From: Amphiscolops sp. MND2022
Lineage: Eukaryota
DNA: 64,000 nucleotides
Direction: 5' to 3'
NCBI GenBank assembly: GCA_964187785.1
Contig: OZ076409.1
Location: 5,644,001-5,708,000 of the forward strand
The notes beneath the pieces are model-generated. The model searched no databases. It worked only from the letters and a program-made list of their open reading frames with translations, and was not told the DNA's origin. Positions within the stretch are counted from its first letter, which is position 1, and each line of letters opens with the position of its first letter. Positions 1,532-47,704 of the stretch are shown here, piece after piece. The position numbers and the translations under genes are program-made.

Positions 1532-1767
1532 GTACCGACAAAGTCGAACCATTTTGATTAGTACAAAAGAGACGGTGTACCAGCACGTAGCTTAATCACT
1601 TCAGTGGTGATTAGTACAGAAAAAGGGTTCTACCAGCTTCGAGGCTGAATCACTTTTTGTGATTAGTACAGAAGAATTGTTTGTACTGACGACTTGGTCG
1701 AATGGTTAGTATAGAAGAAATGATGTACCGACTGTATGTCGAATCACTTTTGTTCGCGATTAGTACA
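1532..1767 (-). repeat. Five degenerate ~45-50 bp structured leader repeats (element D)
   Basis: Units gtac-[cagc/cgac]-loop-[gctg/gtcg]-aatcac-loop-gtgatt-agtac. Confidence 0.8.
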
Positions 1768-1821
1768 AAAAGAAGAAAAAAAATGTTTCGAGTAGAAAAA
1801 GGAAGGAAAGAAAAAGAGTCT

Positions 1822-1832
1822 TGGTCCCACCA
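1822..1832 (-). promoter_or_regulatory. Primer-binding site, element D
   Basis: TGGTGGGACCA on the element strand, 2 nt from the LTR; variant of the A/B PBS. Confidence 0.7.
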
Positions 1833-10580: not shown

Positions 10581-10794
10581 TTTAAAGTGAAAGTACTTTA
10601 AATGACACTAACGAGTGGATTTATCAACTTCAGGTGAAGAGTTTTTGAAGACTGTTATGATTAGAGATGTGTTATTGGATTGAGGAAGATGAACTTCTGC
10701 AAGGGTTTCAAGCGGTGGAGGAGTAGCAAATGTGAAAAGATGAAGTAGTAGGCAAGTGTGCTGGAAAAGAGTTTACAAAAAACTGAAAGAGTGT

Positions 10795-14155: not shown

Positions 14156-14469
14156 TAAAGTACTTGTTTTGTTATGGTTATTGGATATTAAGTTAGAAGT
14201 AGGTCTTAGTTGTAGGTTACAAGTAGTACTTTAAGAAACGCTAACAGAGCTGCAGTTATTAGGTCTTTTAAAATGAAGACAACTATTCGATGAAGAATCA
14301 ATTTAAGTGTGATTCAAATCAGAAAATATGGTATTGAATATAAAGTAGTTACATCAGACAATCAGACAATTCATTTTACATCTAGAATATTAATGAGGTG
14401 CACTGTTCTAAAGTCTAGACATATAGAGGGTGGGGGATAATTATGAATTATGAGATATTTGGTATATCA
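14156..14469 (-). repeat. 3' LTR of element B
   Basis: Near-identical to 30250-30566. Confidence 0.95.
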
Positions 14470-16651: not shown

Positions 16652-16793
16652 TACTGAAAAAAAATGATTGTTAAGTTATTTTGTATTTGAATAATTTGGA
16701 GCAATTGAATATAGATAAAGAATGTTGTGATCAAATTTATTGATGTCAGAGCAGAAAAAATATGAGTAGGAAACTAAGTAAGGGTATTATTAT

Positions 16794-19616
16794 TCAGAAG
16801 AGAAATTGAGGTAATAAAAAGTTGGTAAATAATTCAGGAGGAAAACGGCAAGAAAAATAAACTTTGACAGGACTGTCAGGCGGGTCAAAAATATTATTGA
16901 CAGAAGTTAAAGGGATGTCGTTAGTTTTAATTGGCGGTGGAGTAGGGGGATCAATTTTAGTAGATTGCCCAATGGTTATGTATGGGGGAATCGGTAGAAG
17001 AATTATCACAATTGGTGTCATCAGGAGGAGGAGAATTATGTAAATATAGAGGAGAAGATAATGAAGATATTTGAGGGGGTCGAGGAGAAAGATTATTATG
17101 AGAGAGAAGGTGAGAATTATAAATTGGAGGAGGGGGTGAAAAATCTTCGGTGTTGAAGGATTGTGTTTGATCAGTAGGAGTAGAATGAAGAACAGAAGAA
17201 GAAAGGGGTTTGATTGGGGAAGAATTAGGAGAAGATCTTGGCATTGGGGTTTTTTTTTAAAATTAAGGATTTTTATTTTAATGTTAGTATGAAAGTTAGG
17301 CGGACGAGGTTTAGGACTAGAAGAAGAAATGTGAGTTTTCGCTAATGGGGAAAGGGGTGAATCTGAATTGTCAGATTCGGAGTGTGAATTGGATGATTTA
17401 AGCATAGCAGTCATCATGGTTTGGGTAATAGTTCCAAAGAAACCAAATCCCAAAGCAGTTAAAACAGAAATTTGTTTTTTAAGCAATTTTTGAACAGTAA
17501 AGGAACGATAAATACTGAAGAGTGTGTTAAAAGCGAATTTTAAAAAAGAGCGGTAGAGAAATAGATTCCACATTGGGTTAAAATATAGCATGAATAGCCA
17601 AAGAGTATTATGAAAGCATCGGTAAACCAATCAGGAGAGAAAAATGGGGTTAAGTTTAACATGTAGTCGTGAAGACCAATTCGGAGTGATCGGTAAGGAT
17701 TATCTGGAAAAGAACTAGTAGATTGTTGATTCTTAAATTCATAGCTAAAAGCTTTTCCAAGGAGTTGAAGAGTTTTGTCAGAATGTTTAGTAAATAAAAC
17801 TCTATTCCAAAAATGTTTTAGTTCTTTTTGAGAATAAATACCAGCATCTTGAGCAGTGAAGGTATTATGACTAATAGCAGTTTGAATTTGGGTTGGTTCA
17901 CAAAGAAGTAGGGGGTCTTTTTTAATAGGTTGAGGTGTTAAAACATAATATTGATCAGTGTCTGGGTCAAGAGAAATAACAATTTGAGGATTATTTTCAC
18001 AAGGAATTTGATTGGCATATTCAAAAGTTTGACGTGTAATAGGGTCGACATACATAACAGTGTCAAGATAATTGACAGGAATTTTTTGTCATAGCATTGA
18101 TCAGCAATGTATAAAGGTGAAAGGTGATGAGGGCAATCATATAACCAGGCGGTAGAGCCTTCAACATATAAGAAGTTACTACGGTTTTGGGTTAAGAGGA
18201 AACCAGCGAGTTGTGGATTTTTAACAGACATAGCGAGAATTGTTAAAAGTTGGGTTCGTTCTACTTCACATATAGTATGAAGAGTATTAATTTCAGCAAC
18301 AGACATGCTTTTAAAGACATGGTTTATAGAATAGTCAATTTTAGTGTTAATATGAGCTTCGTAATCAATAGTCGCGAAATTATTTGAAGAGTTTAGAGCA
18401 GGGAAAAGAAATTCGTTTTGAGTATGAATTAATTTTCCAGAGATTAACTGGGTAGTAAGTTGATTGTACTGTTCATTTTGTGGACGTTGAAGAGGGTTAG
18501 GTTTACCAGTATGCATATTAAAAACCTTCTTTATATGTTATGAAAAGATCAGGATATTGAGTAAGGTGTAAAGGAGTAGGTTTGTTACAAAACATTTTTT
18601 TTCAGGAAAAATTTCAAAGCGAGAGAGGCGGGTTTGAGGTTTGGTATCATGATAAGGAGTATCTGTTGGAATAGTAGAGGAGTGGTTATTAAAAAAGTGT
18701 TCAGTTTCAAGCCAATAAAAAGTGTTCAGTTTCAGTTATTGAGCTTAGACATTCTACCAATAAAGGAAGTATTAAAAAAGATTAAACAAAGTTCTTCAGG
18801 GAACCAAACGATGGTGAATGGTGTTAATATAGTTGGTTTACAAAAACCATCATCGTGGAGACAAGGTAAAGTATGTCCATGGTAAATTAGTTTATTGTCT
18901 TTATCATCATAAGTAATTTCAATTTCTTTTACGATAAGAGACCAGCTATCTTTTTCGATTATGTAATCATAACGATCCCAACATACAACTTTTTCTTTTA
19001 GAGTTGAGTTTAATACTAATTGTGAATTGGTGATCCAAGCGAAAGCACCATAATGAAATGTATTTAGTTTAGTAATACGAAAAGGGGGTGGTTTTGTTTC
19101 TAAAAGGCGTTGTTTTTGAATATCATCGAAGAATGTAAAGGAATTAGAGTAATTAAAAGCGTCTAGTTGAGGATTGTTAGTTCCGTTCAAATGGCGGATA
19201 GCATGTTTGCATTCTGTAGGGTCAAGAGTACGGGGACGTTCCATAGTGTTTTGATGGTAATCAGTATAATCATGACGACGATATTTGTAATCCGATTGAG
19301 CACAGACAAATTTTACACGTTTTTCATAAGCTTCACAGGTCCAAGCTTTAAGACGTTTAGCTTTAGCGCGAACGAAAACATTGACAATAGCGCGGGTAAT
19401 TTCAAAAGCAGATGGGGCTTGAGCGCATGGTTGGACTCGAGTAAGACTGAACTGTCTTAAATTATGTTGTTTAGAACAATCATAGTGAGAGACTAAGAAG
19501 TTCGAAATATCAGGATCATTGGGATCTACATGATCAGAGGAGGAAGCAAGTTGCGAAAAGACTAAGAACGGGGAAGAAAGAAAATAGAAGATCGAGTGAA
19601 AAAAGAGGAAATGCAT
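16794..19616 (-). pseudogene. env: env of element B (class III / chuvirus-G-like glycoprotein), frameshifted
   Basis: Hydrophobic signal-like segment, then SHYDCSKQHNLRQFSLTRVQPC, conserved Cys spacing, CEVER...NPQLAG, a TM segment and a Pro/Ser-rich tail; ORFs 18732-19616, 17938-18516, 17540-18055, 16794-17630. Confidence 0.85.
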
Positions 19617-19789
19617 TTTAAAATTGGGCAGTATTTTTTAAAAAGGTAAGGGTATTAAGAAATGTAATAGAGCCGTGTAAAAGACGAAACGGAGGATGGT
19701 CGCTTACAAAGTGACTAAGATTTGTAGCAATAAAAGGATGAGAAGAGATTTAAAATAAACTGTTGTATGTGAGGGAATAGGATGAGGAC

Positions 19790-20938
19790 TTAAGTTATGA
19801 AATTTAACGGTAATTTAATTTTAAGTTCTAAATTTGCGTCTTCTAGGCGAAGAAATTCTTTACGGCGACGTACATTTGAAAGGTGGGGATTTGAATTAAG
19901 TTTATGGGTGGCAAGGTAAAGAAAGCGAGGATCTTGGCGGGGGCTACTGACAAGAGTGTTATTCACGATTAAAGGGTAATCAACACGATTAGGTGTTGGA
20001 GGAGTAGAGTATTGATCAGTAGTGAGGTCAATGTTAAGTAAGTGACTATCAGAAAGGATAGTGGAATTATGAGAGGTAGGACGAGAGAAAAGGTGACCAG
20101 CGTGATTATAAGAAGAAATAGAAGAACGTTGAGAAGAGGTAGTGTCAATTCCCGAAGTGGGAGAATTTTCTGCGTTAGAGAGAGAGTCTGAAGAAAGAGA
20201 TTGAGAGTGATGGCGTAGAAGAGAAGAATTAGTACTTGCGAGAGAAGGAGAAGGGCGACGATTATTGCGAAGATTATATCGATGACGAAGTGGAGGGTTA
20301 AGAGTAGATTCAGAAGTAGTGTCAAGAAGGTTGTCTAAAGAAGAAGTTGTGTACTTAGAGGCGGAACTTGAAGGAGGAAGACGAGGAAAAAGAAGAGAGC
20401 AAGTAGTTGAATCGACTTCACTGAAGTCAGATTTCTTTCGGAGAGAATCAATAGATTCAAGGGCAGGGATTTTGAGAGGTTTAGGTGGGGGAAGTGAAGG
20501 TTGAGAGAAGATATGAGAACAAGGTGGAGGTATTGAAAGAGAATTATCTAATTGAGAGCGTCTGCGAAAAGATTTTATGGAGGTAGGTATAAGTTTTGGT
20601 GTAGGAAGGGTTGGATTATTAATATTTCTAAGGAGAGTAGGGTTTATATCACTGGGATCAGGGATATGAAAAGAAAAAGGAAGTGGAGAATGGGTAGGGG
20701 TTATATTAAAAGGGGATTCAGTATCGGAAAGTGGGAGAGTTAAAGAATTTTGAGTTTGTTGAGGAATAGAAGCTTTCAGAGGAGTGTGAGTTGGGGTATT
20801 AACAGGGGTGGTATCTAAAGAGGGGGTGATTGGTATAGGGTTCAAGGGAGGTTGGTGAGGAACTGGTAAAAAACTTTGTGATGAAGGTATAGTATCAGTT
20901 GAAACAGAAGAAGAGGGTTGAGAAGAACAATCAGACAA
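19790..20938 (-). CDS. Ser/Pro-rich ORF between integrase and env (element B)
   Basis: 382-aa frame homologous to A 30988-31557 (HRYNLR, PPTP..DYPL.V, P..DPRF). Confidence 0.65.
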   Translation of the reverse strand: MSDCSSQPSSSVSTDTIPSSQSFLPVPHQPPLNPIPITPSLDTTPVNTPTHTPLKASIPQQTQNSLTLPLSDTESPFNITPTHSPLPFSFHIPDPSDINPTLLRNINNPTLPTPKLIPTSIKSFRRRSQLDNSLSIPPPCSHIFSQPSLPPPKPLKIPALESIDSLRKKSDFSEVDSTTCSLLFPRLPPSSSASKYTTSSLDNLLDTTSESTLNPPLRHRYNLRNNRRPSPSLASTNSSLLRHHSQSLSSDSLSNAENSPTSGIDTTSSQRSSISSYNHAGHLFSRPTSHNSTILSDSHLLNIDLTTDQYSTPPTPNRVDYPLIVNNTLVSSPRQDPRFLYLATHKLNSNPHLSNVRRRKEFLRLEDANLELKIKLPLNFIT

Positions 20939-21269
20939 AAATACAGTAAGATCCAGGATGGAAACAAAAGGGAGATATATAACAATTTTCTATTAAGTAT
21001 GAAAAGATAAATAAAGATTGATATTAGGAAGGTGTAAAACTTGTAGATGGAAAGTAGTGAATAGAGATTTGAAAAGAATACGAATGCTGTTTCGATGAAA
21101 TGAAGTTTTGACGATAGCAACAGTTCAGTCAGAGTTCACTAAGGTAAAGTGAAGAAGTGTGTATAAGATACAGATACTAATTAGATTGTCGTGTGTCAGA
21201 CTTCAATAAGAGTCTAGACTAAGGACAATATGCAAAGGGAGGAAAACCAAATAAAAAATGAATATTTAA

Positions 21270-24200
21270 TTAAGGGGGGAAATCGATGTTTGGTTTGGAT
21301 GAATTATAATGTCTAGGAGGGAGTGAACGTAAATTATAAGGGGAATGAGGAGCTCGTTTATAAGTGGAGTCATTTTGAAGGGTAAGTGAGGGGGAGGAGG
21401 AAATATCAGGAGAATCAGCAATACGAGGGAAGAACTGAGGAAAGGAATCATTTGAAGAGTTCGAATAATAAATGGGGTTTGGAAGCATTTCAAAGTCAGA
21501 GTCGTGAGAATCAATAGTTTTATCAAGATTATCTTGAGAAGAAGAATGTGAAGGGTTGCGGTGAACAGGAGTAGTTGTTGGAATATTATCTAATTTGTCT
21601 TCTAAGGAAGAATAATGTGGAAAATTTTGATATCTAGGAACAGGAGTAGGAGAAGTATTGGGTTGTCTAATTTTTGAGGATGTAGGGGTTTGAGAATGAT
21701 TTGGATTGTGCGGTAAATCTAATGAGGAAAATTGAGAAAATGTATCTTGGTAAGGTTCAGTATCAGGGTTATTAATAAGGGAAGGGGTAGAATGATAGTG
21801 TTTAATATATGGAAAAATAATGGGTTCTTTGGGATAATATGGTAGAATATGATTTCGATGGGTTTGGAATGTAGAGCCATCTTGCGATAACAGTTCATAC
21901 ATTACTTCAGATAGATGGTTAAGTATTTTATATGGGCCAATTCGGAGAGGTTTGAGCTTTTTTGAAAAATTGACAGGTTTAAAATTCGTATGAATCACAA
22001 AAGTATTCAGAGGTAATTGTTTTAAAGGAGTTGTTTCAAATGTATAACTTTGAGAATTTAGTTTATGATTTAAATGGCGGTGGACAGCTGAATATATTTC
22101 TAACATTGCAGTTTCAGCTGCCAAAAGCCATGGGAAGATAGGTTTATCAAGAAGTGAATGGAAGAAGGGATTAGGGTCTTGAGTGCTATAATGTGAATGA
22201 GGGGGAAGAGACTCACAATAAGTTGCTATACAATTTTTTGAAGCATCACGAGGTAGGTTAGGAGAAAAGGTAAGAGGTATACGAAGATGGGTATGGAAAA
22301 CGATTTGATAAGGGGAAAGTTCAAGTTGAGAAAGAGGTGTTGTATTATGGGCATATGCGTACATTTGAGTTTGAAATGACCAGTTAGTAGGTGGATTTTG
22401 TAAAAATATCCGGAGATGAGTTCCAAGATTTCGGTTTTGAACTTCCACTAAACCGTTTGTCCACGGGGAGTAAGGAGTTCGAGGTGAGTGATTAATATGG
22501 AAAAGAGAACATAGATGAGCCATATCATGATTGATATATTCAGTACCTCGGTCTGCAACGAGGCATTGAGAGGGAACAAACTTGGTGATCCAGTGATGGA
22601 GTAGGGTTCGAATTGCATATTTAGAAGTGATATTAGGAGCAGGGTTAGTAACAACAAAGTGACTAAATGCGTCAATAATTACAAAAATATATGAGTTGTT
22701 TTGAGATGATGGAGAAATAGGGCCTTTAGTGTCCATAGAGATCCGGTAATTGAAATGAGTAGCACTTTCGTAAAAGGGAAGAGGGGGAGAAATATTTTGG
22801 GGTTTAATAGGAAAATGTTTTATAGTTTGACATTCAATGCAGTCATGGATGGATGAAAATAGAGAACCATAAAGGTAAATGAGGGATAAAATAAAATTGA
22901 TTAAATGTCTTAATAGAGAGTTTTTCACCTGAATGACCACGAGATTGTGTTTTACTAAATGCAGCATAAAAGAGTTTAAATGGTAAACATATACGTGTTT
23001 GGTTAATAGAAGGTTGAGTTTTAATAAAGATTTCTTCAAAAATTCGAAAGTTAGGTGTATAATATTGAATAAGATGAGTGTTTGGATCAATATATAAATG
23101 TTGGAATTGTTTATAATATGTATATAAAAAGGAGTTTGCTTTAATAATTGGGGTCAAGGAATAAGAAAGTCTTTGTTTTTGTTTTAACCATTTATATACT
23201 GTAGAAAGGACAGTATCATCTTTTTGAGCTTGAAGTAAAATGGGTACTGTTAAAAAGAAATCAGAAGAGAGAAAGAAATTATCAAATGTTTTACAGTGAG
23301 CAAAGAAGGAAGGGTCAAAGAATGGTAAAGATTGGGTATGTGTAGGCTTTGGAGAAGTTGGGGTAATAGCATTACTGTCAATAGTGTTATTACTAATAGA
23401 AGGGGAGTTGGTAAGGTTGGTTAGGATATCTTGAGACAAGTTGATATCGTTGAAGTAATGGTGTTGTATTTCAGTAAAAAGGGTGTGAAGTTCATGAGGT
23501 GGTTGCGAATACTCTTGGGGGATTCGTTTAAGAACGGGGTCGTCTGTATCGTATAAATCAGTTTCATTTAAAAGAGGATTTTCTTGGAGTAAAGTAACTT
23601 TGTTTTTGACAGGTTTTTTGTATTTATTTAAGAATGAGGAAACAGATTGGAAGGAAAAGGAATCAAGAGGAGTATATTTAACGACAATGCCTTTATCTTG
23701 GATACGAAGTGTGAATTGATCATCACCATAATCAGCTAAAATTAAATGTGAATCAATTTTATGTGTAGGAAGTACGTCTTCATGTTTTATTGGATAGTGA
23801 ATGGGTTTTAAAATAATATCGTTTTTGAGTTGAAGAAAATCAATATGTGGAGGGAGAGTTTTGTGTTGGAGTTGGCATGTTTTATTATTAATAGTTGAAA
23901 AATCTATACTGAGCATATCAGCAACAGTAAGGTTTGTACCAGCTGTATGAATTATTTGTAGGTTTGAAAATTTGGTTAATAGCATTTGACCTTTACATTG
24001 TCGAGGAGTTAGGTTACCTTTACGAGTGAAAAGAAAAAAAATAGGATTGTGATGCGTAAAAATGGTTATCGGGAATTTAGAACCAACTATAATGAATTCG
24101 TATTGAGGAAGGGCAAAAGTAATAGCACAAAGTTCTCTATCATAGGTAGAAAGTTTTTGTTCTTGAGTTGTTAAAATACGAGAATTATAAGAAATGATTT

Positions 24201-26484
24201 GCATTTTGCTTTTTAAGTTAGGTTGAAATAAAACTGCACCTAGGCCAATTAAAGAGGCATCGACAGTTATATAAAATGGATGGGTAGTACTTGGAATGGC
24301 AAGTTCTGCATCTCTAGAAAGAGAAAGTTTGATTTGATTGAAAAGTTTATCGAGAGCAGGAGTCCATTCAAACAAAATATCATCTTGGAGAAGAGTGTAA
24401 AATGGTTTCAAGGAAATGTGTAGTTTGTTGATGAATTTGGAATAAAAATTCATTGATCCTATGAAGCGCAATAATTCAGTTTTAGAAATGGGTGTCTTTA
24501 ATTGGTGGATGGCGTCAAGTTTAGAGGAGATGGGTTTGATTGTATTATTACCAATTTCATGTCCAAGAAATTTGACAGTGAGGAGGATATAGAAAGATTT
24601 TTCAGGAGCAATTTTAAGATTATTTGTTTGACAGATTTGGTAAAGTTGTTCAATTAAATTTAACATGTGAGGTTTTGTATGTGCAAGAAGGAGAATGTCA
24701 TCTATATAAACTAATGCAAAACCTTGGTCAATAAGTTTTTGAAAAAATGAATACATTTGTTTGGTAGAAAAATTGGGTAGGCCTTTAAGACCATAAAATC
24801 CATGAATAAAAGCGTAATGTTTGTCACCAGAAGAGAAACTATTTAAGGTTATAGTTTCTTCATCTAATGGAGCATGAGCGTAAGCATAAATGAGATCAAT
24901 GGCGGCTTTGAATTTTTTGTTAGCACGGGCAAGTTTGGGAGCTAAAGGTTCAATAGGCCATGATTCGGAAGATTGATCGGTATTTGAATTAAGGTGTCGT
25001 GCGTCCAAAACGACTTTAATAGTATCTCCTTTAGGGATAATAATGAAAGAGCGTTTAAAAATGTGGTGCCATATATGGATTTGTCAGAATGAGTAGAACC
25101 AATTTGGCGGATAATATTGTGTTTTTCTAAGTCATCAAGGAGTGTTTTTAATTTTTCTCTATAGTGAATAGGAACTTTTGTCGGTCGTTGGGTTTGAAGT
25201 TTGTCATTAGGTTTAAGACGGATTCTAAAAGGAGTAGCTATTTGGCCAACATCGTTTTTGTGTGTTGTGTTGCATAACAGGTACGATATTTAACAAGAAT
25301 GGAGCAGAGTTGTAAGTATTCTTCATCAGTGACATCAGAATACTGGAAGTTAAATTTATTGAGGAATTGTTGAGTGTCTGGTGAATATGGTAATGGTGGG
25401 AGGATCGGGTTAAAATTTGAGATGGTTGCAAATTGTTTATTTCAAATTGAGGGTTGCGAAGAGAAGAACGACGACGGAGAGGTTTTGGTTCTGAAAGATC
25501 AGGATAATAAGAATGAAATACAGTGTGTATTAAGGAGTTTACATCATTAACTTTATATTGAGTTGGTTGAATATTAGTGGCTGGAACCTCAAAGTATCCA
25601 ATATATCCAGGAGCAAGAATGGCAGAATGGTGGGTAATATTTTGAATAATAACAGAACAACTAGAGGGTTCGGTATTAACATTTTGGTAGACTTGGAGAG
25701 AATTAAAAGTTGAGTTGAAGCGTGTATTAAAAAATGGATGAGGTGTGGAAGGGAATATGAGTTCGTTATCAGAAGTTTTAAACGTTAAAGGAAGTGTTGG
25801 TTGAATTGGGAAATGGATAAATTGAGAAGCGTTGAGTTTAAAATAGAGCTTATTTTTAACATTGATAGTGTATATGTAAGAAAAATATGGATAATCTTTT
25901 TCCTTATGAGCTGTAAAAGGGAGGGTGTTAATGCGAGATTCATGTGGAGTATTGAATGTCAGTGACAAACTTTCAATATTAAGAGTTTTAACATATTTTT
26001 CAAAAAAGGGAGTTCCAAGAATATTGTATTTAATATTGACTGCAGCAAAAGGAATAATAAGGGTACGAGTATTTCCGTGAAGGGAGGTATGAAGTGTAAG
26101 TATTAGATTATGAAGAATAGGTACTTCGGACTTATTAGCAACGGTTTAAGTTTTATATTCATTTTGATGTGGGGAATGTTTTGAGCATTTTAAAAAGTGA
26201 TCGGCTAAAATGGTAAAAGTGGGTAAAGTTAAAACACAAATGGATGCTCCACTATCAAGTAGGAACAAGAGTTCTAATTTAGAAGGGATAGAGGTATCCT
26301 CACTAGGTTTGAAAATGTATAAATTAATAAACCAAGTGGAAGGGGTAATAGCGTTGGCATGTTCAGTATAAGTTGAAGAAAGCTGAGATAACGGAGGGTT
26401 AGGGTGACACATGTTTATTTCAAAATTAGTTTCTGTATTGGAGTGGTTTTGAAGAGGTGGTGTAGATGGATGTGTAAGATTCAT
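21270..26484 (-). pseudogene. pol: pol of element B: protease, RT, RNase H, integrase (frameshifted)
   Basis: LLDSGAS (26146-26484); YIDD and VDAS...RELCAI...ADMLS (22843-25008); ISMD, IIDAFS, DRGTEY, TNGLVE and IGPY (21270-23090). Confidence 0.95.
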
Positions 26485-29198
26485 AGATGGTTTGTATTGG
26501 GATTGAGAATAATTGTTTGAATTTGAATGAGATCTACTACGATAACGATCATTGCGTGGTTTAGAAGGGGGACGATACGGAGAATTGTATCTATTAAAAG
26601 AAGAAAAAGTTGAGGAACGTTCACGGGAACCAGGGTAATATTTGGATGGACTACGAGAAGAATTAGAGTTATAATATGTTCGTGAAGAAGTGTATGATTT
26701 ATAAGGATTTTGATTGTAATGTCTATCATATCGAGATCTATCACGATGGTGGTAAGATGAATATGTGCGGGAGGGAGTTTTAATATTATTTCTAGGACGT
26801 GAATGTGAACCTGAATAAGAACGAGATTGATATCGAGTTTCGCGAGAAGATCTGCGGGAAGGATTACTGTGACTTCGACTACGGTAACGAGGATAATGAG
26901 ATTTATTGGAAGGGCTTTTAAAATGTTGATAAAAGGTGGAGTCGGAGATCTAGATTGTGGTTTTCATTCTTTGAGCATATTAAGTCGGTGAAAGCAAGTT
27001 GAAACACAGTGGTTATTTTTATGGCAAAAGAAACAATATTTTTTGAATTGGGGTTTCGATTCATTGTTAGGGTCCATTGCTTGAACTTGTAGAGATTCGG
27101 AAGGAGGATCTTGAATAGTTGCATTTTGTTGAAAATTATTAGAGAGGGTGTTAATTTCAAGGGAAAGTTCTTGAGTTTTAATTTGTTCAAGAGTAATATC
27201 TTCGGAATCGACCATATTGACTAGAGAGTGAAAAGGATTTGATGGTTCTAAGGAACTGGAAATATGTTTGACTTGGCGTTTATTGGCAAAGTCGTTTAAT
27301 TTTTTAGGAAGACCACGGGTGAAAATTTCATTACATTTGAGGTTAATAGTAGAAGGGTATTCATTATACCAACCTTGTTTAACAAGGTTTCGACTTTGAG
27401 CGCGAAGTGACGGCCATTTTCATTATCCTTTTTACCATGGGAAAGAGCTTCAATTTGAGCATGATATGCGTGTTTTTGAGAGTAGAATTGTTTTTTTAAA
27501 GATTTGGAGAAAAGATGACCAATCATCTTTATAAACTTGTGGAAGACGATCATACCAATTGGAAGCAGTTCCTGTGAGGGAACAATAAAGGAGAGACATT
27601 CGACGAGAATGCCAAGTTAGATATGAGTGAATATCTAAAGGTTGAGGTCCAAGTTGAAATGTTACTCGTGCACTTAGATGTGCTAGAAATTTTTCAGGAG
27701 GATACGTATGGTCGTAAGAGTTTAATAGGATCTGACAAAGCAGCAAAAGGGACAGAAGGAGTGACTGGAAAAGAGAGCGATGAATATGTAGAAGAAGGGT
27801 TGAAAGCTAATGTTGAAGTAGGAGGAATAGAATTAGGGGGGTTTGGAGGGGGTTGGAGAGAATTAGTGGGGAAGTTTTGAAAAGTAGGATAGAGAGAAAG
27901 ATAAGGGTTGTACGAGGTGGATTGGGTGGTAGAAGAAATAGTTTGAGAGATAGTAGGAATTGGTGGTATAGAAGAAGAAGCAAATGGGTTTTGATTAGGG
28001 ATAAAAGGATCATGGGTGGAAGAAGGTGGGGGATTTTGAGTGATTGACTGTGAGGGGAGAGTATTATTTAAAGAAAGAGGAATAGGGGGTAATACGGGTA
28101 TGTGAAGAGCGGACGGTTGAACAGTATTATAAGGAACAGCAGGTGGAGTATTAGAAGGTGTAGTATAATGGTTCGGAAAGTTAGAAGTAGGAAGGCGTTC
28201 AGTAGTTGTGGTGATTTGAGAAGTAGAAGTGGAAGTGTGTTGATTTAAAGATGGGGTAGGGTTTAGTATAGCATTTGAAGATGAGGAGAGAGTGTGAATA
28301 GAAACATTGGAAGTTGTATCAGTTGAAGGTGGTAGAAAGTGTTGTTGCATATAAAGACGAATAGGAGGAGGAAGATAAAGATTTTTATCAAGACTGTTGG
28401 AGTCATAGGCAAGGTATTTAAAATGAAAAGAAGGGAAATCGAGAAGATTATAAAACTGAGGGTGTTCATTATCAGGAGTATCCAGAAAAGGTAAAAGCTC
28501 ATTTTGAGTAAACTGTTGAGGAAAATTTATGCAAGCATCTTGGAATTTTGAGAGCCAAATGAGTTAGTAATTATGTCGAAAAAATTTTCGAAGGAAAAGA
28601 GAGTATATCTGAATTTGTTCTTTTGTTTTGGTAGTGAGGGTAAGATTCTGAAAGAATTGATATTGAAAATGGTGAATTTGAAGAATATCGGTAGTAGGCA
28701 ATGGTGGGGGTTATTTTCAATAGTACGAAATTGTTCAATTTTAGGAAGGTCAAAAAGAGATTCCTTTTGGAGAAGGTCGTGTAAGAAAGAAGGGTTAAAA
28801 ATATGTTTAGGTAAAAGGTTATTTTTTTCTTGTAGATGATTGAGGAAGGTTGTAAAGACATTAGCAATTGAGATATAAATATTGTTAGGATAGATGTTTT
28901 TTCGAAAAGTATCAGAGCGATTTGTGAAAGAAGTAAAGGGAATAGAAAGTGGAGGTTCTTCAGAATTTTCAAAAAGGGAATGGGTGTCAATATAGTATAG
29001 ATAAGAGTCATGATGTTCACGAATAAGAGGGATTGTATGAATATCTTCCGGGTAGGTTTCAAAAGAAAGAGGAGTGGTGGAGTTATAAATAAGATTGTTA
29101 AGAAATTGAGTAAGAGTTTGTGAAATATCACGGGTGACACGTTGAGAGGTATTGAAAACAAAGGGAAGGGGAATAAGGGGTTGTATGGGTTCGGTCAT
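26485..29198 (-). pseudogene. gag: gag of element B (N-terminal domain, P/S/T linker, capsid-like region, CCHC knuckle, RS-rich tail)
   Basis: SLTGTASNWY capsid-like motif; CFFCHKNNHCVSTC; RS/RY-rich stretch ~26500-26900. Confidence 0.85.
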
Positions 29199-29434
29199 TA
29201 TGAGTGTCTATGGGGATTGAAATATAGCCAAATCCAATCCATAACAACTTCAGGATGGACGGATGGTTCAGTAGGGAGTGGAAAGAAATAGCGATGAACT
29301 TTTTGGCGAATGTAGATATAGAATGAGAAGAGAGACGTGTGAAAATATATAGGTACACTGATAAGAAAGACGGAAAAGAGGATGAGTTGAAAAAGGGCAA
29401 AGCAAGGATTGGGGAGAAGAAAGAGGAGGTTCAT
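29198..29434 (-). CDS. Hydrophobic upstream ORF3 of element B; its stop overlaps the gag ATG (TAATG)
   Basis: Homologous to D 715-1056. Confidence 0.55.
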   Translation of the reverse strand: MNLLFLLPNPCFALFQLILFSVFLISVPIYFHTSLFSFYIYIRQKVHRYFFPLPTEPSVHPEVVMDWIWLYFNPHRHS

Positions 29435-29678
29435 ACAAAAGGAACGAGAAAAAGAAAGGAGAGTGAGAAAGGTATAAGTGATGATAGTAGATTAGGTATG
29501 AATATAAAAGGGAGGAGGAAAAGGGGGAAACTTAGAAAGAAAGGAATTTAGCAGAAGAGAGATTCGACAATTTTTTCAATGAGCAGCATTAAGAATACTA
29601 GCATTGCAAAAATGTATGAAACAAAAAGAATAATGGTGGCAAGATTTTCGGTAAGAAACATAAATGAAAAAGCAGGGA

Positions 29679-29816
29679 TTATGCTCTGTATTGTTCAATA
29701 GCATGAGGAAGGAAAGGGATAATAAATTTATCAACAAGAAGAAGAACAATGGCACAGCGACCAAAAAAATAGAGGAAGATTAAGCAAATACAAACGGAGT
29801 CATTAAGGGAAAGCAT
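29679..29816 (-). CDS. 45-aa predicted single-TM upstream ORF1 of element B
   Basis: MLSLNDSVCICLIFLYFFGRCAIVLLLVDKFIIPFLPHAIEQYRA, translated by hand; aligns without gaps to D uORF1. Confidence 0.6.
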   Translation of the reverse strand: MLSLNDSVCICLIFLYFFGRCAIVLLLVDKFIIPFLPHAIEQYRA

Positions 29817-29964
29817 GGAAAATGTGGGAGGAGGTAGGAATGGGAAAGAATTTTAAATAGAAAGTTTAAGATAGAAAAATGGAAGGTAAAAAAGGGAATG
29901 AAAAAAAAGGTGTAGAAAGGAATGGGGAAATTACGTTAAAGGGATTAGAACGGGAGAAGAAAGG

Positions 29965-30168
29965 GTACCAGCGCGTAGCTGAATCACAAAAGGTGATTAG
30001 TACAGAAGAGAATGTTGTACCAGCGCGTAGCTGAATCACAAAAGGTGATTTGTACAGAAGAGATAAGGTGTACCGACTACTGGGTCGAACCACTATATGT
30101 GATTAGTACGTAAGAAGATTGAAGTTGTGTACCGACAATGAGTCGAATCACTTTGTGTGTTTAGTACA
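29965..30168 (-). repeat. Four structured leader repeats (element B)
   Basis: gtaccagcgcgtagctgaatcacaaaaggtgattagtac and variants. Confidence 0.85.
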
Positions 30169-30236
30169 GAAAGTTTGTTTGGTATTGAAAGAGAAAATGA
30201 GTACAAAAAATGTTGATAAAAAGGAAAGAAAAGAAG

Positions 30237-30247
30237 TGGTCGCACCA
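30237..30247 (-). promoter_or_regulatory. Primer-binding site, element B
   Basis: TGGTGCGACCA, 2 nt from the LTR; complementary to a tRNA 3' end ...GCACCA (possibly Gly, unverified). Confidence 0.75.
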
Positions 30248-30249
30248 GT

Positions 30250-30566
30250 TAAAGTACTTGTTTTGTTATGGTTATTGGATATTAAGTTAGAAGTAGGTCT
30301 TAGTTGTAGGTTACAAGTAGTACTTTAAGAGACGCTAACAGAGCTGCAGTTATTAGGTCTTTTAAAATGAAGACAACTATTCGATGAAGAATCAATTTAA
30401 GTTGTGTGGTACAAATCAGAATATATGGTATTGAAAATAAAGTAGTTACATCAGACAATCAGACAATTCATTTTACATCTAGAATATTATTGAGGTGCAC
30501 TGTTCTGAAGTCTAGACATATAGAGGGTGGGGGATAATTATGAACTATGAGATATTTGGTATATCA
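30250..30566 (-). repeat. 5' LTR of element B
   Basis: Near-identical to 14156-14469. Confidence 0.95.
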
Positions 30567-31980
30567 GTAAGTTAAATTGTCTCAAATTGTGTTGTTTTGC
30601 ACAGTCATAATGAGAAACCATGAGATTTGTAATATTCGGATCATCCGATGGAAGATAGTTTTCTGTGTCAGAGGGTGTTATGGGTATTGGAAAGGTGAAG
30701 TTAAATAAGTGTGAATAGAGTATCAGAATTGTTTTATATGAGGTTGTAAGGAGTTCAAAAAGAGGTAGTATATTTAAGACCTGAGTACGGGTTACAAAAT
30801 ATGATTTTGCCATATGTGATAGAAGGTATATTGAGGTCTCGTTCAAAATCAATGTGTACTACTTCAAAAGGAGCAGGAGAAGTTTTATGTTCTATCTTTG
30901 AGACGTGAAATATTGGATGTGGATTTAAACCTTGCAATTTGACTTTGACTTCAACTTTGAGTTCTAGATTCGGTGTCTGAAGGCGTTTTAGTTCTGTTTC
31001 CTTCTTTTGTGAGATAAGAGATCGTTGTTTGTAATGAAGCGTTCTGCAAGGATAGGAAATCTAGGATCGTGCTGTGGGTCGTAGATGGTTATACCATCGA
31101 CTCTAAGTGGATAGTCAGCAAATTTTGGAGTTGGAGGTCTAGATTGATCTGCAGTATAATATTCAGGTATTCTAATATGTGCGGGAACAGGAGTAGGTAT
31201 TATAACTTTTGAGAAAAGATTTCCAAAAAGGAATGCAGTCTGAGCGTCTGAGGAAAGTAGAGAAGCGGTTTCAAAACCAGATGTAAAAAATGGAGAAGGT
31301 ATAAAGTCAGAAGAAGTTGTTTCAGAAGACAACGGTTGTGCGTGTTGTCGTAGAAGTCCTAAAGTAGAATTGCTAGAAAGAGCAGATAGGTTAAGTGTAG
31401 AAGTGTCTGTACTAAGTCTGCGTGAATGAAGATCTCGAAGATTATATCTATGGTGTGGTACAAAAAGTGAGCCTGTTGTATCTTGTGATGGAGTGTATTC
31501 TGATGTATTGTCTAAGAGCTTTGATAGTGATGTAGAAGGTTTTCGAAGAGGTTTCAATGGTGGATAAAGTTTTGAGGAAGTAGTACTAAGTTCTGATGGT
31601 ATTTTCAGTGAAGGTAATTTTGTATATTCAGTATCGGGGATTTGTACAAAATTAAGTTGAGGTTGTAATCTAACAGTTTTGATAGCTGTAGGATGTTTGT
31701 AGTTAACGTATTGTTCAACACTTTCAGGGTTTGGTATGTGTACTATAGGAGTGTTAATAGGGGTTTGTTGAGTAGGAGTGTTTACATGTAATTCAGTTAT
31801 AGGTGGTCTATGAAGGAGTGATGAAAATGTTGTTTCAGAAACGTATGATCTTGGTCTTTTAGAAGGAGTAGTAGGAGTTACATTACTAGAGTTTGTAGTG
31901 TTGGATACTGAAGATTCAGGAGTAGAAGGAATACTTGGAGTTGATGGAGATATATCAGAGGAAGAATCCAGGATTCTTGA
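30567..31980 (-). pseudogene. env: Ser/Pro-rich ORF and N-terminus of env, element A
   Basis: 30988-31557 is homologous to B 19790-20938; 30538-30852 carries MVSHYDCAKQHNLRQFNLL. Confidence 0.8.
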
Positions 31981-32081
31981 AATGTTTTCAACAGGTTATC
32001 TTTTAGCTAACTTGTTATTGATTATCTTTCATTCAGCTGTAGTGACTAGTTTTGAGTGAGCCAGCGGATAGAATGATGAGG

Positions 32082-35000: not shown

Positions 35001-37123
35001 TTTAAGTTTTTGGAAAAGACTTTCGTGTTCGTCTGTCCATTTCCAAGGAGTGTTCTCATGTAAAAGATCGTAAAATGGTTTGAGTTTAATATGTAGTTTT
35101 TCAATAAATTTGGTGTAAAAATTGAGTGCACCAATGAAACTCATTACGGCAACTTTTCCAGTTGGAGAAGAGATTTTGTGAATAGCTGCAATTTTCGAAT
35201 GAATTGGTTTAATTGTATTGTAACCAATTTCAAGTCCAAGAAATTTGTCTTTAAGGAGCATGAAAAATGATTTTTCAGGGGCTAGTTTAAAATTGTTTTT
35301 TGTACTGATTATGTGTAATTGTTCTATGAGTTGGAAGATGTGTTCTTTAGAGTCAGATAAAAGTAATATATCGTCAAGGTAGACAAGAGCAAAACCTTGT
35401 TCTATAGGAGTTTTAAAGAAGGTAGACATTTGTTTTGTAAAGAAGTTTGGGAGTCCTTTGAGACCATAAAAGCCTCGGATGAAAGCGAAAAGTTTATCTC
35501 CTGAGGAGAAACTGGTAAGTTTAATAGTGTTTTCATCAAGAGGTGTATGTGCATAGGCATACATAAGATCACTAGCAGATTTGTACTTTTCGTTTGCGCG
35601 TGCTAATTGTGGAGCGAGAGGTTCAATAGGCCAAGATTCATCAGATTGTTCTGTATTGGAGTTAAGATGTCGAGCGTCTAAGACACATTTTATAGTATCT
35701 CCCTTGGGGATTATAATGAGAGGGTTTAAATAAGTTGTGCCATAAACGGGTTTGTCTTGTGGAGAGGAAACAATTTGTTTGATAATGTTATTTTTTCCGA
35801 GTTTTTTGAGAAGTACTTTAAGTCTCGGTAGTGAATAGGGACTTTAGAAGGACGTTTTGTCATAAGTTGAGCATTAGGTTTAAGTCGAATACGGAAGGGC
35901 GTTGAAATTTTTCCGACATCGTTTTTATGAGTTGCTTAACATGTTTTATACTTGAGTAACATATTGCAAAGAGTAATGTATTCGGTGTCTGTAAGGTCAG
36001 AAAATTGGAAGTTAAATTTATTAATAAATTTCAGATTTTCAGAAGTGTATGGTAGAGAAGGAAAAATGCGTTTTTCGGAAGTATGAGAAGTAGGCTGAAC
36101 GTTGTATAAAGGAGACGTTTGATTTGGAATGTCATCGTTTGTCATAAAAATTTGATGTAAGGAGAATTGAGGAGGAGGGGTTGTAGGATCATCGTATTGT
36201 ACAATATAGTTAATTTGTGGAAGTGGTTCAGTGATTTCAGGATGGTAGGTAGAGGTAACATTATGTATTAAAGTGTTAAAATCATTAACATGGAAGAATT
36301 TGGGTTTTTCTTTAGTAATTGGAACTTCAATGTATCCAATATGTCCTGTAGGTAGTGTTGCAACAAGTTTTGAGGTGTTTTGGATGATAGTTGCACAAAT
36401 ATCTGGTTTGTCATCAGTGAATACTTCAATGAAATCGAAATTTGTACGAAATTTAGTAGCAAAATAGGTATGAGGTACTGAAGGGAAGAAGTGGTTTTGT
36501 GGTGTTGTAAAATGGAGGTTATGATAATTTTTCATTGGAAAGTGTGCAATTTTTGAAGACTTGGGTTTTAGACGTATTTGAGTTTTTGAATTAATTCTAT
36601 AGATGTAAGAGAAATATGGATAGTCTTTAGATAGGAGTGTTGTGAACTTTGCATAATTTGAGTGTGTTTTTGATTGGTATTTGAATTCGAGTGTAAAGTC
36701 TTGCATGTTTATGTTTTGTATATTGTCTTCAAAAAATGGTGTGCCAAGAATGTTGTATTTGATATCAGCTACTGCAAAAGGTACCGAAAAGTAACGGGAG
36801 TTTTCATCAATAGTAGTGTTCAAAATTATATTTGCATAATGTAAAATAGGAACTTCAGTTTGGTTTGCAAAGGTTAATGTTTTGGAATTTCGAGTTGTTC
36901 TAACATCAGAAGTGTGATTTGATCTGATATCTAAGAGTTTCGTAAGAGTTATGTATGTTGGGTAATTTAATACAGAAATGGAAGCACCGCTATCTAGAAG
37001 GAATGCAATTTCCAATCTAGATGGGTTGTCTCTTTGTACTATACTTGATGGTGTATGTACATACAATGTACAAAACCAACTTGTAGGTTTGACAGCATTT
37101 GCCATTGCTGTTGGGTGATACAT
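32082..37123 (-). pseudogene. pol: pol of element A: protease, RT, RNase H, integrase (frameshifted)
   Basis: LLDSGAS; YLDD; VDAS...RELLGI...TDHKPL...ADMLSR; ISMD, DRGSEY, TNGLVE and IGPY. Confidence 0.95.
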
Positions 37124-40100
37124 GTGTACTTGAAGGGTCTTGGTCCTGAAGTCTGGTCTCTTGGTCTTGAACGTGGTCTGTATGAATTTGTATATTTTGT
37201 GAATTTGTTGTCTCTGGAATAGGAGCGTGATCTGTATCTAGGACGAGAGTTGTGTCGATATGGGGATCTGTATGAAGATCTGTAGGGAGAACGGTAATAC
37301 CGGGAATCACGTTTGTATGTATCATATCGTGATCTAGAGTAGTGTGGACGAGTAGTACTCTTATCGTAACTAAATCTATCTCTAGATGTAGAACGGTATC
37401 GATTTTGTGAATAGTTTTTATTGTTAGAGTTGTCTCGTGAAGTACTTCGACTTCGGTATCGATTATCATAGTGTTTTGTTCTATCGTTGGAAGGAGAACG
37501 GAAGTATTGTACAAAAGATTTTTGTGGAGATTTTGATCTAGCATTTGCTTCTCGTTTGTCTTCATCATCTCGTTGCTTTTTGAAACAAGCAGAAATGGAG
37601 TGATTTGTTCTATGACAGTATGAGCAATATGCCTTATATGCAGGATTACTTTTGTTATTTGGATCTTTGAGTTGTGTAAACATAAGTTGTTCTTGAGATG
37701 AAGGGTCAAGAGTTTGAGTGTTCAATTGTTTTGTAATATTATTAATTTCAAGTGCAAGGTCATGTGTTCTGATTTTGTCGTTTGCAATATCTTCAGCGTC
37801 AACAAGTTTTACTAATGTATGAAAAGGAATTGAAGGTTCTAAAACAGTGGAAGTGTGTTTTACTTGCCTTTTGTTTGCAAAGTCTTTAGGATTTTTTGGA
37901 AGTCCTTTTGTAAAGATTTCAATACATTTAAGGTTAATAGTGGATGCATTCTCATTACACCAGCCTTTTTCAACCAGCTGTTGAACTTTGAGTGCAAAAT
38001 GGCGTACTGTTTCATATCTTTCTTGGTTAAATTAAGGGCTTCAACTTGAGCATAAAAAGCGTTCTTTTGTGAGGAAAATTGTTATTTGAAAGCTTGTAGA
38101 AAAGCGTGCCAATCATGTTTATAGGTTTCGTTTAAACAAATGTACCAACTAAGTGCTGTACCTGTTAGAGAGCATTGTATGAAAGCCATGCGACGAGCGT
38201 GCCAAAATTTATATTCATGTTCTGATGTAGGTTGTAAACCTAAGGAAAATGCAACACGTGCCTCGATATGTTGTAAATATTCTTCAGGTGTATAATTATG
38301 ATCTAGTCCATCAAAAAGTTTAATGGGTTCTGATATAGAAGTGGAAGAGTTAATATATGTTGGGTGTGACATAGTATTATGAGATATGGTAGAGGGTGGT
38401 GTTGTATTGTAAGTAGGATTATTCGAAATACTAGTTAGGGAAGTAGTAGAAGTGTTACGAAAATGAGGGTTGGTTCTAATTGTTGTTGAAGGAGGACTTT
38501 GTATTTGAAATTGGGAAGTTTGTAATGTAGGTGTGGTTGTATTAGACGTATGTTGAAAAGAAAGAGTATTTAATGAATTGGGTGTGTTGTAATAATCTGA
38601 GATTGTTGTGTATGACTTGGATTAGTACTGGTAAGACTGTACGATAATGGATTAGTTAATATAGTTTGTAATGGAGGTCGAGAAAGATGTCTGGCAGTGG
38701 TATAATTAAAGGATGGGTTGGAACGAATGGTGTTAATATTTAAGGTAGGTTGTGTAGTTTGTACTGGGTTAGTTTGAGCTGGAGTATAAGTTGAAGTTTG
38801 TATTTCAGAAGGTGATGGTGGGGTTGGTGTTTGAAAATGTACTGTATTAGTGTTCTGTGTAATATGATGTGTATTTGATGAGCTTTGTTGAGGAGAATTA
38901 TGGGTGTTTATCTGAGTTGAGAAATGAGGTGGAACAGAAGGTGGATTATAATTTCGAGGAGATGGTACTTGTGTCTGAGAGGGTTGTGTAATATTAGTAT
39001 TGGATGTAAATAACACAGAGGTATTGTCTGGATTTGTAGTTAAAGTGTTGTCTTGACTTTGGTTGTTAAATTCGTTTTGTGTGATATTGTGGGTAGGAAT
39101 TAGTATAAGATTTGAATCATCAGTTATTGTAAAACTTCGTGTATTTTGTACAGTTTCTTCAGAGAATTCTGATGTATCGTGAATTGTAGTTGTTTCAGAA
39201 GGATTTGGTTGTTGTATATCTCAGATTTGTGATAGTGGTGGGTATAGTGGTTGTTCTTGAGGAGGATCAGAATTTTGAAAAAGGTTAGCAAGGGCTTCTT
39301 TTTCTGATTGTTCTGATTGTTGTCTCGTATATAAAGGTTCAACATTAGAGGTTTGTTCTTCAGGAGTTGTTTCAGGAGAAGTATTGGATGTAGTAAAAGG
39401 TCGGTTATCTGATGTTTCAGAATGTTCAACTAAAAAGTTGTGATCTAGGCTTAATTGTTCAAAATGTGTAACATTAAATGGTGTATGATCTCTGTAGTGT
39501 AAATGTTTGTTTTCATTTTTTATGATGTAAGGTAAAAGTTCTGTGTGTGTTAGTATTTGAGGGAAGTTAATGTAAGCTTGTTGATCTTTTTGTTCCCAAA
39601 GTAATTGATAGTTAAATCTAAGAAAGTTTAATAGGAATTGAGTAAAAATTTTCACTTGAGGTGTAGTGTCATCCGTAAGAAAAATGTTGTTAAAGAATCT
39701 GTATTGAAAATTTTTTATTTGTAAGATATCTCGTTGTAGCCAATAATGAGGGTTATCATGTCTTTGAACTTTTGTGTCAAGATCGGGGACCTCGAAATAT
39801 TCAGATCTGTGTCTTAGTTCTTGTAGGTGAGAAGGACAATAAAGTGGTGTGTCTTGGTTTTCATTGAATTCGATGAGTTTTTGCATATATGTGCGGAAAA
39901 CATCTTGTATAGAAAGTGTAATATTTTGTGGGTGAATGGTTCTATAAAATGTTCCAGAGCTTATACCTTTAACTGGGTTAAAAGTAACTTGAAAATTGGT
40001 TTGTGATGATGTTATTTCAAGTGTTTTGTATCGAATGTAATAAAGATAAGAATCACAATGTTCTCGTGCTAATGGAATAGTATGTACTGTATGGGGTTCT

Positions 40101-40613: not shown

Positions 40614-41048
40614 GTACAATAAAGTTCTATTAAGAGTATGTAGTTCTATTAAGAGTATGTCAAGGAAATTGTATAAAAATTTATTATATAAATGTATGAA
40701 AAAATGAAAGTTGTATAAAAAGAAATATGTGATATATTTGTTATATATTTTAATTGTTATGTATTTGGATCCGTTAACTAGTTTTGAAAGAGTGTTGTAT
40801 GATGTTTGTACTATAGAAGAGATAAAAAGAAAAGTGTTATAATGGTGTTATGTAAAAAATATATGTCATTTAGGTGTGCCAACTTTAAAGTAGATCTGGG
40901 CGGCTAGAACCAAAGAGTTTTTTTACTAGCAGGAATCGCTGGTTAGCACTGTAGAAGGGCCAACACGTATCGCACATCTGCGGTTGGAACGGAAGAAAGA
41001 GAGAAAGCCAAAACGAATTCACTCAGAGGTGGTTGGAACGAAAAATTT

Positions 41049-41180
41049 ACTGACAGGAATTACGTTAAGAAACGCAGTCAGAACCAAAAAATATGACTGA
41101 CAAGAATTACGTTGAGAAACGCAGTCAGAAGCAAGAAATGTAACTGACAGGAATTACGTGAAAGGACGTAGTCAGAACCA
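41049..41180 (-). repeat. Three ~47-bp hairpin leader repeats (element A)
   Basis: ctgacaggaattacgttaagaaacgcagtcag and two variants. Confidence 0.85.
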
Positions 41181-41361
41181 TAGCAACACGAATCAATTTC
41201 GAAAAGAAATTGGTTGCAACGTTGAAGTTAATAACGGTAAGCAATATTGAGAGGTGGAGAAACTGTGTGTCGAACAAAGAGATATCGGATGAGAAAGTCG
41301 AGAAAAGGTGTACAAAAATTGTAGAGTTGTGACATGAATGGGAGAGAAAGAAGAATTTTCT

Positions 41362-41372
41362 TGGTCGCATCA
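41362..41372 (-). promoter_or_regulatory. Primer-binding site, element A (one mismatch to B)
   Basis: Plus-strand tggtcgcatca, 2 nt from the LTR. Confidence 0.7.
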
Positions 41373-41635: not shown

Positions 41636-42365
41636 TGTAACGATAAGCGCTGGCGCTTGAACCGCAACGTAGAGTGGAGGAACTAGAACAGCGAATATAA
41701 TCTGGGACCTAGATCTCCGCGGCCCTAGCTCATTTTCCCTCCGAAGGAGCCAGTCCCAAGGTCGGGGAACCGTCTTGTAGGACGCTCTCTGGCCTGGTCC
41801 TAGTCTGTAACTGCTAAAAGTAACAGGCATCTTGCAAGACTCAAGACCACTGCTCAACTAGCCTTTAAAAACTGGGCTGAAAATCGATGAAGGTTGAACC
41901 GTAACATTGGAGAACCTGATAAAATCGCCAAATTGGTTAAACAGATGTTAAACAACAGCTCTCGAGCATATTAATCTACCACATCGAAAAATACAACAAG
42001 AAATCAAGAGTTCAGAGTCATTTGATGAAAATTGACCTCAGGTTCCCAGCGCTAGCGCTAGTTGCCACACAGGATACCGCAGGGATACTCAGGCGAACAT
42101 CTGGAACACTGGTTTCCTTTACTGTAGTAATGGATATCTCCTAGAGATTGACACAATACTGTGTTCTGTATGCGTTGGGGACGTCTTTTTAGTCGTCTCC
42201 GGTGCTTGTTCGTCGCGAGCGGCGATTTCTGCTTTTCTGGGGTGCTTTTTCTGGCAGGTACTTCGTCTTGAGCATGTTTGAGTGCCACGTCAAATTTGAA
42301 CGAATTTTTGACAAAATTTTCTAAACATGTCGGTTGATATTGCTGTACCAGAGCTTGCCGTTACA
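41636..42365 (-). repeat. 3' LTR of element C
   Basis: Matches 59513-60242. Confidence 0.97.
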
Positions 42366-42374
42366 TCACTCCCC
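42366..42374 (-). promoter_or_regulatory. Polypurine tract, element C
   Basis: GGGGAGTGA directly before the 3' LTR on the element strand. Confidence 0.75.
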
Positions 42375-47419: not shown

Positions 47420-47704
47420 TATATCATAGGTCTAAAAAGGATTACCGTTTGGCTTACCAAGTGCATTGTGGGGAGAGCTTAAGGCTCATCATTCGGCTGC
47501 AATAGTACAAAGATGGTTCCATAGGGGAACCGCAACAAGTTTAAATTGTAGTTCAACTAACTAATTAGAACACAAAGATAGAAGTTATCTAACGCTACGT
47601 TACAATGTAATCATTTCATGGGATGGTTTGATACTTCCTCCCAGGCATAACGATTATCGGGTGGGTGAATTGAATAGGGGGAAACAAAAAGTATTTTGAG
47701 CGGG

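Follow-up and report, generated by a model that had tools for sequence, protein, structure and literature searches.

Tandem arrays of putative RNA modules in the leaders of env-clade Ty3/gypsy elements from Amphiscolops sp. MND2022

Introduction

Core encapsidation signals of retroviruses, such as the tandem three-way junction of HIV-1, micro-psi of RSV and SL-C/SL-D of MoMuLV, are located in the 5' leader ahead of gag and are described as single nested folds with exposed guanines or conserved tetraloops (PMC7599994). Such packaging signals employ three-way junctions and tandem hairpins (PMC7599994, PMC13736810), and it is exposed guanines that zinc knuckles recognise (PMC7599994). Packaging sequences of Ty1 lie within the first 380–580 nt, and those of yeast Ty1 and Ty3 lacked precise definition as of 2016 (PMC4974528). 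In coronaviruses, short structured repeats of lineage-specific type (two to eight copies, some in the 5' UTR) have been linked to packaging; these motifs are nested in a single larger stem-loop and take their definition from the sequence of a loop or bulge, one type being a conserved bulge (PMC8206606).

Tandem leader motifs have also been described in env-carrying Ty3/gypsy elements, namely the Drosophila errantiviruses, where the Su(Hw) insulator of gypsy (12 sites), the enhancer of ZAM and the six repeats of gtwin act as DNA sites for protein binding (PMC3383448, PMC1885662). The symmetric, multi-copy motifs of Sirevirus retrotransposons, found in the LTRs and before env, have been interpreted as DNA regulatory CpG boxes (PMC2829016). 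The A-repeats of Xist, a host lncRNA, offer a case of ambiguous pairing within and between repeats (PMC6917512).

Here we describe tandem arrays in the leaders of three related elements, designated B, C and D, within a 64-kb stretch of the Amphiscolops sp. genome (hereafter the window). The arrays resemble the retroviral signals in their pre-gag position in the 5' leader, in the use of junctions or tandem hairpins and in the association with a CCHC Gag. Unlike the retroviral signals, they consist of 4–7 near-equivalent modules of 30–45 nt, separated by pyrimidine spacers, with drifting loops and, in B and D, with 0–1 unpaired bases at the junction. In layout the arrays also resemble the lineage-specific repeats of coronaviruses, one type of which has a conserved bulge, as in C: B and D have 4–5 modules of a single type, and C has 7 of a different type. 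The arrays differ from the coronaviral motifs in not being enclosed in one larger stem-loop or defined by loop or bulge sequence, and coronaviruses belong to another virus class, with no sequence relation claimed. Symmetry and presence in multiple copies are shared with the Sirevirus motifs and ambiguity of pairing register with the Xist repeats. With the errantiviruses the elements share tandem leader motifs; unlike those DNA sites, the C modules keep complementarity despite sequence change.

Results and Discussion

Elements carrying the arrays

The window contains a nest of LTR elements, almost all of them on the minus strand (Table 1). The nesting is triple, with B inserted into the env of C and A into the 5' LTR of C, and element D is cut off by the left window end. 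B and D match at ~68–69% in local alignment blocks covering the gag start, the leader and the LTR, whereas the RT regions of B and C share 336 of 572 residues at the protein level. The two LTRs of B are identical at 306 of 314 aligned bases (8 differences); gag, pol and env of this element are all frameshifted.

Table 1. Positions of the arrays and of their host elements in the window.
Feature	Position	Strand	Remarks
Module B1	30128..30168	-	CGAC/GUCG type; 6-bp hairpin with one A-A mismatch
Module B2	30070..30109	-	CGAC/GUCG type; 6-bp hairpin with a U-G wobble
Module B3	30016..30056	-	CAGC/GCUG type
Module B4	29965..30004	-	CAGC/GCUG type; both loops identical to those of B3
Decayed fifth B module	29930..29951 (approximate)	-	aligns with D5
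Rest of B leader	29199..29964	-
D array	1532..1767	-	D1 1724-1767, D2 1683-1712, D3 1630-1670, D4 1576-1618, D5 1532-1565
C array	40926..41217	-	seven modules: 5-bp stem, flush hairpin and 6-nt bulge
C modules	41183-41217, 41144-41175, 41097-41128, 41050-41081, 41008-41036, 40960-40987, 40926-40946	-
Element B	14156-30566	-	16.4 kb; env-type Ty3/gypsy, LTR-gag-pol-env
Element C	6277-60397	-	related to B; split by B and A
Element A	41636-60242		GC-rich; interrupts the 5' LTR of C
5' LTR of B	30250..30566	-	TG...TA; 4-bp target duplication TTAC
3' LTR of B	14156..14469	-	pairs with the 5' LTR of B
PBS-like site of B	30236..30247	-	2 nt after the LTR
PBS-like site of D	1821..1832	-
PBS-like site of C	41361..41372	-
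Gag nucleocapsid region of B	26146..27419	-	two frames; one CCHC zinc knuckle, then RS-rich tract
pol of B	21270..25083	-	RT, RNase H, integrase (Ty3/gypsy order); frameshifted
env of B	17540..19637	-	three fragments, each with Pfam PF24664 (Monjiviricetes fusion)

The overall organization, LTR-gag-pol-env in an invertebrate host and with a fusion gene of class III type, is that of the metazoan env-carrying Ty3/gypsy elements surveyed in PMC13524379; element B, the env of which was typed here by Pfam, exceeds in length the 14-kb distance above which LTR pairs were dropped from that survey. The PF24664 matches of the three env fragments have E values of 4e-9, 2e-5 and 2e-4, one of the three being above the curated cut-off. 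A second env gene in B was considered and rejected: the fragments concerned (12167-14230) are not within B but belong to the env of C, the target of the B insertion. Open reading frames of 300–470 aa that flank env in B and C (9183-10607, 15776-16675, 19790-20989 and 30988-31995, minus strand) had no Pfam match and are possible accessory genes.

The combination of a CCHC knuckle and an RS tract in Gag recurs in 5 of the 7 relatives examined. The tract contains 17–24 RS/SR dipeptides per 100 residues (26146-27419 and 37039-38031, minus strand; P0001, P0002, P0004, P0005 and P0008). This layout resembles that of SR export adaptors.

The sequence TG(G/A)TG(C/G)GACCA is conserved 2 nt after the LTR at the PBS-like sites of B, C and D. 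For that of B no exact match was found in a published tRNA table, the closest being the ends of Arg(UCG) and Gly tRNAs, and no tRNA genes were found in the 64-kb window. But for two additional bases after TGG, the B site is identical to the Arg(UCG)-type PBS that element A carries (about 59486-59497). Both LTRs of B terminate in TA rather than CA (30250-30251 and 14156-14157, minus strand); the same TA end precedes the PBS in D (about 1835, minus strand), and the LTR of C ends in CA. A polypurine tract ahead of the 3' LTR is absent from B and C, where 9 and 8 purines, respectively, were counted in 25 nt, versus 18 in A. At the place where the tract would be expected, B (14470-14494) and C (6737-6761) have, on the minus strand, a UCC(C)GGU motif that is similar in the two elements and is preceded by a U tract.

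Module arrays in the leaders of B and D

A sequence-only reading of the window had described four repeated units at 29965-30168 (B) and five at 1532-1767 (D), beginning ~55–70 nt past the PBS. All nine are present, and the measured distances are 67 nt in B and 53 nt in D. B and D run on the minus strand, however, and the sequence given in that reading must be reverse-complemented to obtain the array RNA. In this orientation unit B4 is GUAC U AAUCAC-loop-GUGAUU CAGC-loop-GCUG GUAC. The proposed pattern of two hairpins within an outer stem is found in eight of the nine units and fails in D2, where the AAUCAC/GUGAUU hairpin has been lost.

The units of B and D are positional orthologues. Both leaders are ~1 kb long, and each contains 9 AUGs in the stretch ending at or close to the start of gag; that of B is U/C-rich (G 9%), with eight AUGs ahead of the likely gag start near 29198. 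A covariance model built from the nine units found no further significant copy in the 64 kb (next match, E 0.87). A loose three-way-junction shape occurs at 28 places on the minus strand of the window and at 41 on the plus strand, and because this shape alone is so common, the signal of the arrays lies in repetition and selective conservation.

Conserved stems and drifting loops

In the three pairs of intact orthologous units of B and D (B2/D2 left out on account of the deletion in D2), 80 of 84 stem positions are identical, as against 16 of 36 in the loops (Fisher P 1e-9). An unedited alignment, which takes in B2/D2 as well as one misaligned unit end, puts stem identity at 94/107 and that of loops together with spacers at 38/74 (P 7e-8). 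At four-fold degenerate sites in gag, B and D agree in 13 of 31 positions (8/23 and 5/8 in two in-frame blocks), so that the loops have drifted like neutral sites and the stems are under selection.

These figures bear on a neutral explanation, that a chance palindromic unit was duplicated in tandem and homogenised by conversion. In its favour, the loops shared by B3 and B4 indicate a likely recent duplication or conversion, and decay has affected one unit of D, one of C and the fifth of B. Yet, since divergence between orthologous units matches that of four-fold sites in the loops but not in the stems, neutral duplication is a very improbable source of the arrays; the covariation and constant bulge of the C modules described below also speak against it, as does a descriptor of these modules with five matches on the minus strand and none on the plus strand (mean of 0.09 in shuffled sequence), albeit one derived from the modules themselves.

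Compensatory change in B and D is scarcer than had been claimed. The concerted switch between CAGC/GCUG and CGAC/GUCG is real, but it spans only 2 of 15 pairs and, because the unit order CGAC, CGAC, CAGC, CAGC is common to B and D, it probably reflects one ancestral event; all four substitutions are transitions that could have passed through G-U intermediates. Overall, 93.8% of 128 cells pair, and the two pairs altered on both sides both belong to the 4-bp hairpin. This count does not exceed that in shuffled alignments (201/500), whereas the covariation score does (0/500), although the latter is inflated by the relatedness of the sequences. The 6-bp hairpin includes three G-U cells and one A-A cell. 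Comparison of the strands gave no clear preference, with 3 G-U versus 2 A-C cells; the latter, which would form wobbles on the opposite strand, are both in the damaged D2. The array itself is real and selected.

A different module type in element C

The leader of C carries an array of its own, which begins 143 nt past the PBS. One module (40926-40946) has lost most of its hairpin. Six modules were aligned first; 91% of their cells pair, and two-sided change affects 5 of 10 pairs (12/500 shuffles). A model of these six recovered a seventh directly upstream (E 0.3 over the window, 0.003 in the 700-nt neighbourhood), which has a novel 5-bp outer stem and a novel 7-bp hairpin next to an unchanged 6-nt bulge. 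Across all seven modules the outer stem is paired in 33 of 35 cells, and three of its five pairs have been altered on both sides, as have the first four inner pairs, of which one runs through A-U, G-U and G-C in the transcribed strand. Two-sided changes are thereby seen in seven pairs. The bulge, AU(U/A)CNU, is present in 7/7 modules. When the arms were permuted among modules, the observed level of pairing was reached by 12 of 5040 arrangements, or by 2 of 120 with the near-identical C1–C3 collapsed. A descriptor built from the modules that it detects matched five of the seven on the minus strand of the window, with no other matches on that strand. Together, the covariation, the permutation of arms, the constant bulge and the descriptor results indicate that the C modules close within units and that structure outweighs sequence.

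The covariance models of B/D and C do not detect each other, and a common role of the two array types is therefore suggested by position and layout. The arrays lie 53–143 nt past the PBS in all three members of the clade in the window (B, D and C) and are alike in copy number, period (~35–60 nt), A-U and C-G pairs at the edge of the junction, and spacers made up largely of pyrimidines (137 of 178 nt). The AC/GU junction pairs and an AUUC stretch common to B/D and C are only suggestive as a sign of homology.

The arrays could instead be enhancers or insulators at the DNA level, bound by a transcription factor, with the hairpins a by-product of palindromic sites. The errantiviral insulator, enhancer and repeats provide precedents at the same position (PMC3383448, PMC1885662), the arms of B and D keep sequence and not merely pairing, and folding energy gives the transcribed strand no advantage, with z-scores of -3.4 (B) and -2.4 (D) against -3.8 and -2.4 for the opposite strand. 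However, the arms and hairpins of C differ among modules and are nevertheless complementary, which a protein reading DNA sequence would not need, and the spacing of half-sites ranges over 3–8 nt. An array of DNA sites is accordingly rated as quite improbable. Since complementarity outlasts sequence change and half-site spacing varies, selection of some kind at the RNA level is very probable.

Pairing register of the B/D module

In the three-way junction proposed for the B/D unit, closure by the outer stem is uncertain, as none of its five pairs covary and an alternative register exists. Being palindromic, the outer GUAC arms are also able to pair across neighbouring units. In the context of 600 nt, the predicted probability of outer pairing is 0.00–0.27 within units (8 units) and 0.45–0.84 between units (three B junctions); for the 4-bp hairpin it is 0.42–0.94 in seven of eight units and 0.22 in D5, and for the 6-bp hairpin it is above 0.6 in five of eight. 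Where the three-way junction is drawn, it has 0–1 unpaired bases, with one unpaired U in eight of the nine units, and loops that are not conserved.

These predictions raise the alternative that the GUAC arms join neighbouring units, or two RNAs, into a chain of hairpins lacking three-way junctions, with a function like that considered below for packaging; this fold overlaps the other readings. It is the one preferred by the partition function in B and used by the minimum-energy folds even when coaxial stacking is allowed, and the Xist A-repeats are a precedent (PMC6917512). Fixed-structure energies of B, by contrast, are better for the register within units (-38.1 versus -36.5 kcal/mol; -42.6 versus -30.5 with coaxial stacking), and the outermost arms have been retained in both B and D. 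In C the program likewise pairs across units, yet covariation favours closure within them (33/35 cells versus 26/30 in the inter-unit register). As a modelled fold, the chain is possible and, on balance, rather unlikely.

Possible functions

An array placed between the PBS and gag occupies the position of retroviral psi. The idea of a multimerised cis-element at the site of a packaging signal, put forward in the sequence-only reading, gains from the selection on the stems (80/84, against 16/36 in loops and 13/31 at four-fold sites) and from the independent, covarying array at the equivalent place in C, although compensatory change within B and D probably took place only once. We tentatively propose, as a reading that may well prove correct, that the arrays are lineage-specific repeated RNA motifs for genome packaging or dimerisation. 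Against the background of a U/C-rich leader with little structure, each module would fold locally, as a three-way junction in B and D or a bulged hairpin in C. Gag, with its zinc knuckle and RS tract, might then bind several junctions or bulges at a time, one molecule to each, so that capsid formation is nucleated on full-length RNA; the number of modules would confer avidity and tolerance of the loss of single units, and the interchangeable GUAC arms could additionally pair between two RNA copies.

Against packaging stands the scarcity of guanines: only 7 of 16 B/D loops contain G, at no fixed place, the spacers have 10 G in 178 nt, and the C bulge has G in 3/7 modules. As conserved exposed guanines are lacking, recognition would need the shape of the junction or bulge. 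A search upstream of the arrays of B and D revealed no strong splice donor by which env mRNA would be freed of the array; one strong donor motif is present in the LTR of C.

The modules might instead serve another step in the life of the RNA, such as export, localisation, protection from splicing or translation from a long leader, through binding of a host protein of the STAR/SF1 type or of the RS tract of Gag. The 5' strand of the B/D units reads UACUAAY in 7/9 and ACUAA in 8/9, and ACUAA/UACUAAC is the site of SF1 and Quaking (PMC13004596, PMC6847458). The ~1-kb leaders with their 9 AUGs would fit such a role as well, some errantiviruses have IRES sequences (PMC3383448), and Cer1 requires a dedicated export protein (PMC10309623). 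On the other side, UACUAAY represents one ancestral event that was spotted post hoc, has 16 more copies elsewhere on the strand and is mostly paired in the predicted fold, and ACUAA is missing from the C modules, whose arms vary. We regard a role in such a step as possible, although it is less probable than a part in packaging or dimerisation.

Within the packaging reading, a further and unlikely extension can be envisaged, whereby each env-clade family would have its own RNA shape code: interchangeable modules in a row, perfect three-way junctions in B and D and hairpins with a 6-nt bulge in C, would be read by the family's own zinc-knuckle/RS Gag, co-expressed relatives would in this way sort their genomes into the correct particles, and palindromic arms would swap between two RNA copies, dimerising them at many points. 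If true, such a code would give Ty3/gypsy elements, the signals of which lack precise definition, a packaging signal that is modular and present in many copies. Packaging by the arrays, if confirmed, would mean that LTR retroelements share with RNA viruses a strategy of repeated motifs. In two module types at one position, natural variation has already set the retained parts (arms, 6-nt bulge) apart from the freely changing loops, and the modules offer small, defined RNAs suited to binding and probing.

Searches for relatives and earlier descriptions

Comparison with Rfam gave no matches at the gathering score and otherwise noise (E>2) that included no ribozyme. In agreement with the initial observation that hammerhead core motifs are absent, there is no ribozyme match in Rfam, and the junction has 0–1 unpaired bases. 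An exonuclease-resistant RNA requires a loop pseudoknot; this possibility was rejected because the loops vary freely.

Stricter module patterns had no matches in metagenome contigs, prokaryote genomes or viral contigs. Three single matches of a loose pattern in viral contigs, which bore no resemblance to the window, were rejected as chance. Locus searches that started from proteins were also without a relative. For 28500-30600 no sequencing run was listed, which has no bearing on expression. The protein search itself retrieved 8 close Pol relatives among 101 matches (46–92% identity), which fall in clusters of 285 and 1183 members, and the families are therefore probably large. No description of the modules was found in the open-access literature, subscription papers being outside the scope of that search; in the main text of PMC13524379 the words acoel, tandem and stem-loop do not occur and leader structures are unmentioned.

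Other features of the window

The LTRs of B and D share an identical 24-nt block (about 30325-30360 and 1900-1935, minus strand), which supplies a predicted hairpin with its loop and 3' arm and is possibly an R-region signal. The very long leader of element A includes a two-copy 101-nt repeat (82%) with a spacing of 181 nt (58024-58305). Long inverted repeats mark a MITE-like element of ~1 kb and a small palindromic insert within C (4775-5816 and 11507-11640), and a LINE with endonuclease and RT domains is located at 60646-63751 on the plus strand.
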